This document shows, one piece after another, positions 1 through 128 of a DNA stretch of 1,326 nt. The DNA comes from Escherichia coli. GTDB taxonomy: Bacteria > Pseudomonadota > Gammaproteobacteria > Enterobacterales > Enterobacteriaceae. A program made the position numbers and the translations under genes. The stretch lies in the NCBI RefSeq assembly GCF_003334255.1, contig NZ_QOWU01000163.1, one strand, 5' to 3'. The first letter of the stretch is position 1. Each line of letters begins with the position of its first letter. The notes under the pieces were generated by a model. It searched no databases, was not told where the DNA came from, and worked only from the letters and a program-made list of their open reading frames with translations.

Positions 1-128
1 GGCTGCCCCTGCGCCACCGTGGTGACTATCACTGTCTCTGTGGTGCGTCGCGCTTTCAGCTCTATGGTGCATCCCGGTACCGGTTTGCCGGTGCCGTCCT
101 TCAGCACGCCCGATATTCTGACTGTCAT
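1..128 (-). CDS. stf: Side tail fiber protein (lambda Stf-like), N-terminal 42 codons; 3' end beyond the window
   Basis: Minus-strand ATG at 126..128 opens a frame that translates by hand to MTVRISGVLKDGTGKPVPGCTIELKARRTTETVIVTTVAQGQ and continues to position 1. This closely matches the N-terminus of lambda Stf as I recall it (MAVKISGVLKDGTGKPVQNCTIQLKARR...). It is preceded by a GGGAGA Shine-Dalgarno at appropriate spacing and sits in the expected position downstream of J. It is absent from the ORF track only because it is truncated by the window edge. Confidence 0.8.
   Translation of the reverse strand, partial: MTVRISGVLKDGTGKPVPGCTIELKARRTTETVIVTTVAQGQ

Follow-up and report, generated by a model that had tools for sequence, protein, structure and literature searches.

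The question raised by this locus is whether the 42 codons at one of its edges are the attachment end of a lambda-type side tail fiber gene, retained while the host-range end of the neighboring J gene was replaced, as an earlier note on this DNA had proposed. Throughout, "the window" refers to the whole stretch that was analysed, 1,326 nt in length. Its orientation is the reverse of the lambda map, and its genes are arranged on the minus strand in the order J, a gap, and then stf. We consider it very probable that the window holds the beginning of the collar domain of a lambda-type stf gene, i.e., an anchor kept under selection, next to J-tip, gap and Stf-tip modules that are swapped. The features on which this reading draws are as follows.

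1-128, minus strand: 5' end of an stf-like side tail fiber gene, codons 1-42 (from its translation and its matches to PDB, PHROG and PF08400)
135-139, minus strand: Shine-Dalgarno sequence GGGAG, 6 nt 5' of the stf ATG (read from the sequence)
142-175, minus strand: terminator-like hairpin CGCAGACCGG-GUAA-CCGGUACUGCG followed by T8, abutting the stf ribosome-binding site on its upstream side (terminator scan)
129-312, minus strand: J-stf gap of 184 nt, without lom or any other open reading frame of note (ORF list)
313-768, minus strand: distal end of J, the last 151 codons plus the stop, a divergent and rare receptor-binding tip (forced alignment, genome counts)
769-1326, minus strand: J shaft (alpha-helical shaft and beta-prism central straight fiber), lambda-like up to a GDIVK motif

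The start of stf and the domain that it encodes

The stf ATG occupies window positions 128-126 on the minus strand and is followed by 42 codons, translated as MTVRISGVLKDGTGKPVPGCTIELKARRTTETVIVTTVAQGQ, that remain open to window position 1, with the frame continuing past the edge; the distal part of Stf thus lies beyond the window, as had been noted. A purine-rich element is found at the Shine-Dalgarno position in most of the aligned stf homologs, and in E. coli genomes with 99.8% identity to the window PGAP has the gene begin with this ATG too. In all of the E. coli matches inspected, the PGAP product is "prophage tail fiber N-terminal domain-containing protein". A plus-strand open reading frame (19-195, 58 aa) antisense to stf was set aside, as there was nothing to support it.

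When aligned with orf-401/Stf of lambda (NC_001416), 28 of the 42 window residues were identical, all of them within the first 38, and the motifs ISGVLKDGTGKPV and LKARR were exact in both proteins. The earlier note had called these residues nearly identical to lambda; the exact motifs stand, but with 28 identities in 42 "strongly similar" is the better description. At the DNA level, window and lambda could be aligned over 134 nt, of which 17 precede the ATG, with an identity of 72.4%. Searched alone against PDB, the 42 residues matched the lambda Stf chains 9E7M and 9MGH (the Ur-lambda collar domain; E 1.5e-13), and against PHROG they matched positions 1-40 of eight tail-fiber families of very different lengths (E down to 2.6e-20). 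Since such values were obtained from 42 residues alone, the likeness to lambda Stf goes beyond chance and is not confined to a few residues. In a full-length relative with an identical N-terminus, PF08400 was matched over its entire length (1-134 of 134; E 2.4e-42), a CarboxypepD_reg match at residues 5-82 overlapped it, and residues 1-91 of lambda Stf in PDB were matched with an E value of 2.2e-30; over residues 1-90, Stf of the relatives is 61% identical to that of lambda. Positions 1-128 are therefore the start of a lambda-type side tail fiber gene belonging to the PF08400 family. We found no substantive difference from the PF08400 "Prophage tail fibre N-terminal" proteins of E. coli prophages, which the relatives match over the full length of the model, and the family is one already known: Pfam has a model for it, PGAP a product name, and its structure has been solved.

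That structure comes from Ur-lambda, in which Stf residues 1-94 were seen by cryo-EM to fold into a sheet of six antiparallel strands, followed by a helix (PMC12617516; PDB 9E7M, 9MGH). [quoted passage not shown] An AlphaFold (AF2) model of residues 1-134 of the relatives' Stf (pLDDT 73) placed strands at 3-8, 20-26, 33-37, 48-53, 56-64, and 70-77 and a helix at 85-95, with the topology of Ur-lambda Stf, indicating the same six-strand-plus-helix collar fold. Foldseek searches with this model returned 9E7M first (61% identity, TM 0.68 on the target), the collar spike of Vibrio phage XM1 (7KJK) second, and then transthyretin-like domains. The 42 residues make up the first three beta strands of a transthyretin-like (carboxypeptidase-regulatory-like) domain of ~91 residues. 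Because the window ends at codon 42, the collar domain is incomplete in it: only strands beta1-beta3 are encoded, and the beta4-beta5 contact loop (VEPG, 53-56) lies beyond. In that loop, V53, E54, and G56 were invariant among nine diverse Stf homologs. In Ur-lambda, four trimeric fibers contribute the twelve copies of the domain that encircle the gpV/gpM junction, which fastens the fibers to the tail, and by homology the Stf domain of the window lineage would anchor its fiber likewise. The attachment role that had been proposed for this end of Stf is supported, by homology, by the Ur-lambda collar, the full-length PF08400 match and the Foldseek match to 9E7M.

Several known systems bear comparison. 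In Ur-lambda, as in the window, the Stf gene (orf-401/orf-314) lies downstream of J, and its start has the same context of hairpin, T-run, ribosome-binding site, and ATG; further along the protein, a GxVQLSS...ATPKAVK motif of the Phage_fiber_2 type is common to it and to the relatives' Stf. The N-terminal domain of the XM1 collar spike is related both in sequence (E 8e-4) and in fold and, like Stf, it anchors a fiber or spike in a ring, although the XM1 ring is located at the neck and not at the tail tip. Comparable 12-copy collars are made by T5 p132 and DT57C LtfC (cited in PMC12617516), but there the collar is a separate protein whereas the lambda-type collar is the N-terminus of the fiber itself.

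Exchange of modules around the stf start

The J gene in the window comprises its last 337 codons (1326-316) and a stop at 315-313, on the minus strand. Its shaft is plainly that of lambda: query residues 15-228 matched lambda gpJ in PDB (8XCJ/8IYK) with an E value of 4e-66, the NCBIfam model lambda_TipJ scored 310 bits on the 337-residue fragment, and residues 61-186 were 66% identical to lambda J. This likeness ends at the GDIVK motif. Over the last 151 residues identity fell to 19% in a forced alignment, i.e., background level, which bears out the claim that the J receptor-binding domain had been swapped, and a lambda-type, LamB-binding receptor-binding domain was not detected in the window J by sequence comparison. 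The tip had no match among PDB sequences at E values up to 10, and a protein-level search of phages returned no match outside the PhiR12 group. Among 5,426 E. coli genomes, 29 carried it, as did 5 of 50,697 phage records, each of them from a PhiR12_* phage; our comparisons flag the J tip as rare in E. coli. A search for literature on the PhiR12 and PhiR5 phages and their receptors returned nothing usable, these phages do not appear in the Genome Research 2025 lambdoid paper, and our literature searches found no experiment on the fiber of the window lineage.

Three minor observations concern J itself. A weak PFDR motif at the start of the tip is common to lambda. In PhiR12_2, J is split by a 1-nt deletion in a G6 run (window 1004-1009), and in PhiR12_5 it is split by a 1-nt deletion at window position 931. 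These splits would remove the distal shaft and the tip, and they could be either homopolymer sequencing errors or real variants.

The window in full was found in 29 of 5,426 complete E. coli genomes (98-99.8% identity) and in five phage records, all of them PhiR12_* (95.8-98.1%). To compare individual segments, we used six prophages with related stf starts (IBS28, M18, A39, ST866, O111:H8 8E, and B771). Relative to the window type, identity was 76-98% over Stf residues 1-42 and 65-94% over residues 43-91, and only 29-42% from residue 135 to the end of Stf; at the J tip it was 0-21%, i.e., background. Similarly, a related stf start (coverage of at least 80%) occurred in 227 genomes compared to 29 for the J tip. 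The phage PhiR5_1 shares 95.6% nucleotide identity with the window type over a stretch that begins 27 nt before the stf ATG and covers both stf and the gene after it, and despite having the same stf it carries a different distal end of J plus lom. The mosaic pattern that had been suggested from the window is therefore seen directly in related prophages and in PhiR5_1. With respect to lambda, nucleotide identities of 72-77% indicate that the whole region represents an old divergence and not a recent, clean swap.

Conservation of the stf start could in principle reside in the DNA, serving as a linker for recombination or as a signal in translation or transcription, and not in the fit of the protein to the tail. 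The mosaic joints do lie a short way 5' of the ATG, where the terminator T-run and the ribosome-binding site are found, and these two elements are identical in the window and PhiR5_1 although the adjoining hairpins differ. Over codons 1-42, however, dN/dS was 0.04-0.24, with dS of 0.4-1.4 and dN of 0.02-0.26, and conservation extends through residues 43-91, which complete the folded domain. Since low dN/dS combined with high dS denotes constraint at the level of the protein, we rejected conservation of the stf start as DNA only; such an explanation is very improbable. The comparisons show that the anchor end of Stf is held by purifying selection across lineages while three modules are exchanged around it: the J tip, the cargo of the J-stf gap, and the Stf tip together with its downstream partner gene. 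The joints lie near the GDIVK motif of J, at the terminator T-run that precedes the stf ATG, and within the collagen-like repeats.

Swapping of host-range ends while the anchors stay conserved is textbook mosaicism in phages, and engineers have already made use of it. The mosaicism of J and stf in the window is thus real but ordinary, of a kind already known, and it matters little beyond correct annotation. Engineered fibers that keep the N-terminal part of lambda Stf and carry a swapped C-terminal part assemble and work, and the fusion point used for engineered J was lambda J residue 964 (PMC11338833). As with the natural J joint, the residue-964 fusion of these gpJ/STF chimeras is in the last conserved stretch before the tip, but the chimeras are laboratory constructs whereas exchanges of the window type are natural. 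The map of natural joints (in J near GDIVK, at the T-run before stf, and in the collagen-like runs that precede the Stf tip) could help in designing chimeric fibers.

The gap between J and stf is a further site of exchange. Unlike lambda, the window has no lom between J and stf, and an Rfam scan of the window at E values up to 1 found no RNA family. Elsewhere the gap holds lom (lambda, ST866, O111:H8 8E, and PhiR5_1), hok/sok (IBS28, A39, and 1720a-02), or two hypothetical genes (B771); the Rfam sok model scored 62.5 bits in the IBS28 gap (4036-4517 of that locus, L010), which was the only sok match. The window gap aligns with both ends of the IBS28 gap but lacks the ~325 bp holding hok/sok, as if that segment had been deleted in the window lineage or inserted in IBS28. 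The J-stf gap is thus a cargo slot. The hairpin between gap and stf folds with a minimum free energy of -23 kcal/mol (centroid -20.9, z -2.8), and 0 of 200 shuffled sequences folded as well. A GC-rich hairpin with a T-run was present at the same position in all 11 of the PF08400-type stf loci compared, including lambda. Since the stem sequences differ among these loci, it is the structure and not the sequence that is kept. This hairpin probably acts as a terminator for the cargo ("moron") slot, and Q-modified polymerase presumably reads through it.

One anchor on two types of tail shaft

An identical Stf N-terminal domain (134 of 134 residues), accompanied by L, K, I, and J at 94-99% identity, was found joined to two types of tail shaft. 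The first, present in DETEC-S792, KY179, 2015C-3121, and the PhiR12 phages, is lambda-like: its gpM is 80% identical to lambda gpM and keeps K2, W6, and R80, and its gpV keeps E63. The second, present in SCU-104 and 2013C-3033, has V and M proteins only 20% and 44% identical to those of the first; its M keeps K2 and R80 while W6 aligns with a leucine, and its V could not be aligned. The tape measure genes also differ in length (3243 nt in SCU-104 and 2013C-3033 vs. 2574 nt in DETEC-S792). Since the recombination joint of the shaft is located between M and L, it separates the Stf collar domain from the proteins on which it docks in lambda, and since the identical N-terminus occurs with two tail types, we can only infer that docking follows the exact lambda style. 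In both second-type prophages the portal gene is annotated as frameshifted, and these prophages may consequently make no virions. Either the collar tolerates different tubes or the second-type prophages assemble no fibers. Tolerance of different tubes would fit, by analogy, the related collar domains of XM1 and of 9g- and Seurat-like phages.

A different account is that the N-terminal domain docks on, or is specified by, the co-inherited tip module (L-K-I-J) and not gpV/gpM. It draws on the presence of the identical Stf domain and its L-K-I-J companions behind two dissimilar sets of V and M, and on the loss of the lambda contact residue W6 from second-type gpM. Set against this, second-type gpM retains K2 and R80, V53, E54, and G56 of the contact loop do not vary among diverse homologs, and the frameshifted portal genes leave it doubtful that the second combination yields virions at all. 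In addition, homologous domains serve as collars on tails and necks that differ greatly (XM1 7KJK and the 9g- or Seurat-like siphophages), for which reason tolerant, ring-type docking is the simpler account, and specification by the tip module seems to us improbable. If both combinations do give fibered virions, docking may be independent of the specific V and M contacts of Ur-lambda, by way of either a loose ring clamp or direction from the tip module; we give this a small chance. HK97 was considered as a phage that might naturally combine a PF08400 Stf with a tail unlike that of lambda and was set aside: its Stf N-terminus is different, with no significant match, and therefore has no bearing on the docking question.

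Full-length stf in relatives

Beyond codon 42, stf is known from relatives and not from the source contig. The gene was uninterrupted, with 476-520 codons, in seven of eight relatives containing the full window, including three PhiR12 phage records. Among relatives, Stf ranges from 476 to 523 aa by gain or loss of collagen-like Gly-X-Y units (stf genes at about 4699-6216 of three loci). The exception was SCU-104, a 99.8% match to the window, in which stf is annotated as two pseudogene pieces and, compared to PhiR12_1, its collagen-like repeats show a 1-nt gap as well as a deletion of 45 nt. As to whether stf is intact or frameshifted, which the earlier note had asked, the gene was intact in all but one of these relatives: an interrupted frame, which the note had named as refuting, occurred in SCU-104 only. 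The stf of the source could itself be a decayed remnant, frameshifted or truncated just past the window, so that the conserved start has no present function. SCU-104 provides a close precedent, as does laboratory lambda, which itself carries a frameshifted stf (PMC12617516), and the varying length of the collagen-like repeats implies that slippage is frequent. Yet the gene is intact in seven of those eight relatives, and over codons 1-42 the differences among close relatives are all synonymous. We regard decay of the source stf as unlikely and favor a gene whose start is maintained for its function as an anchor.

In the relatives, the collar domain forms the very start of a long fibrous protein whose gene is downstream of J. 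It is followed by a helix (99-133) or coiled coil, two long collagen-like Gly-X-Y stretches, a Phage_fiber_2 repeat at 260-301, and a C-terminal tip of ~90 residues. This shaft differs from that of lambda, which is an Ala/Ser-rich coiled coil, and the tip is not a T4 gp37-like binder of OmpC. Alignment of the full stf and the downstream tfa with lambda had also been proposed; comparison of the relatives with lambda bore out the lambda-like N-terminus of Stf, but the gene 3' of stf was a DUF4376 gene, grouped by PHROGs with tail-fiber proteins, and not lambda tfa. Among prophages with at least 99.5% identity to the window, we found three different Stf tips, joined after the last collagen-like run, and each was paired with its own downstream DUF4376 partner gene.

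In several prophages, the DUF4376 gene is followed downstream by a gene for a YadA-like trimeric autotransporter adhesin, located as follows.

12997-14157 of the SCU-104 locus (L001): YadA-like adhesin gene
7299-8468 of the 2013C-3033 locus (L004): YadA-like adhesin gene
7309-8580 of the IBS28 locus (L010): YadA-like adhesin gene
7545-9002 of locus L015: YadA-like adhesin gene

This gene is likely to be lysogenic-conversion cargo.
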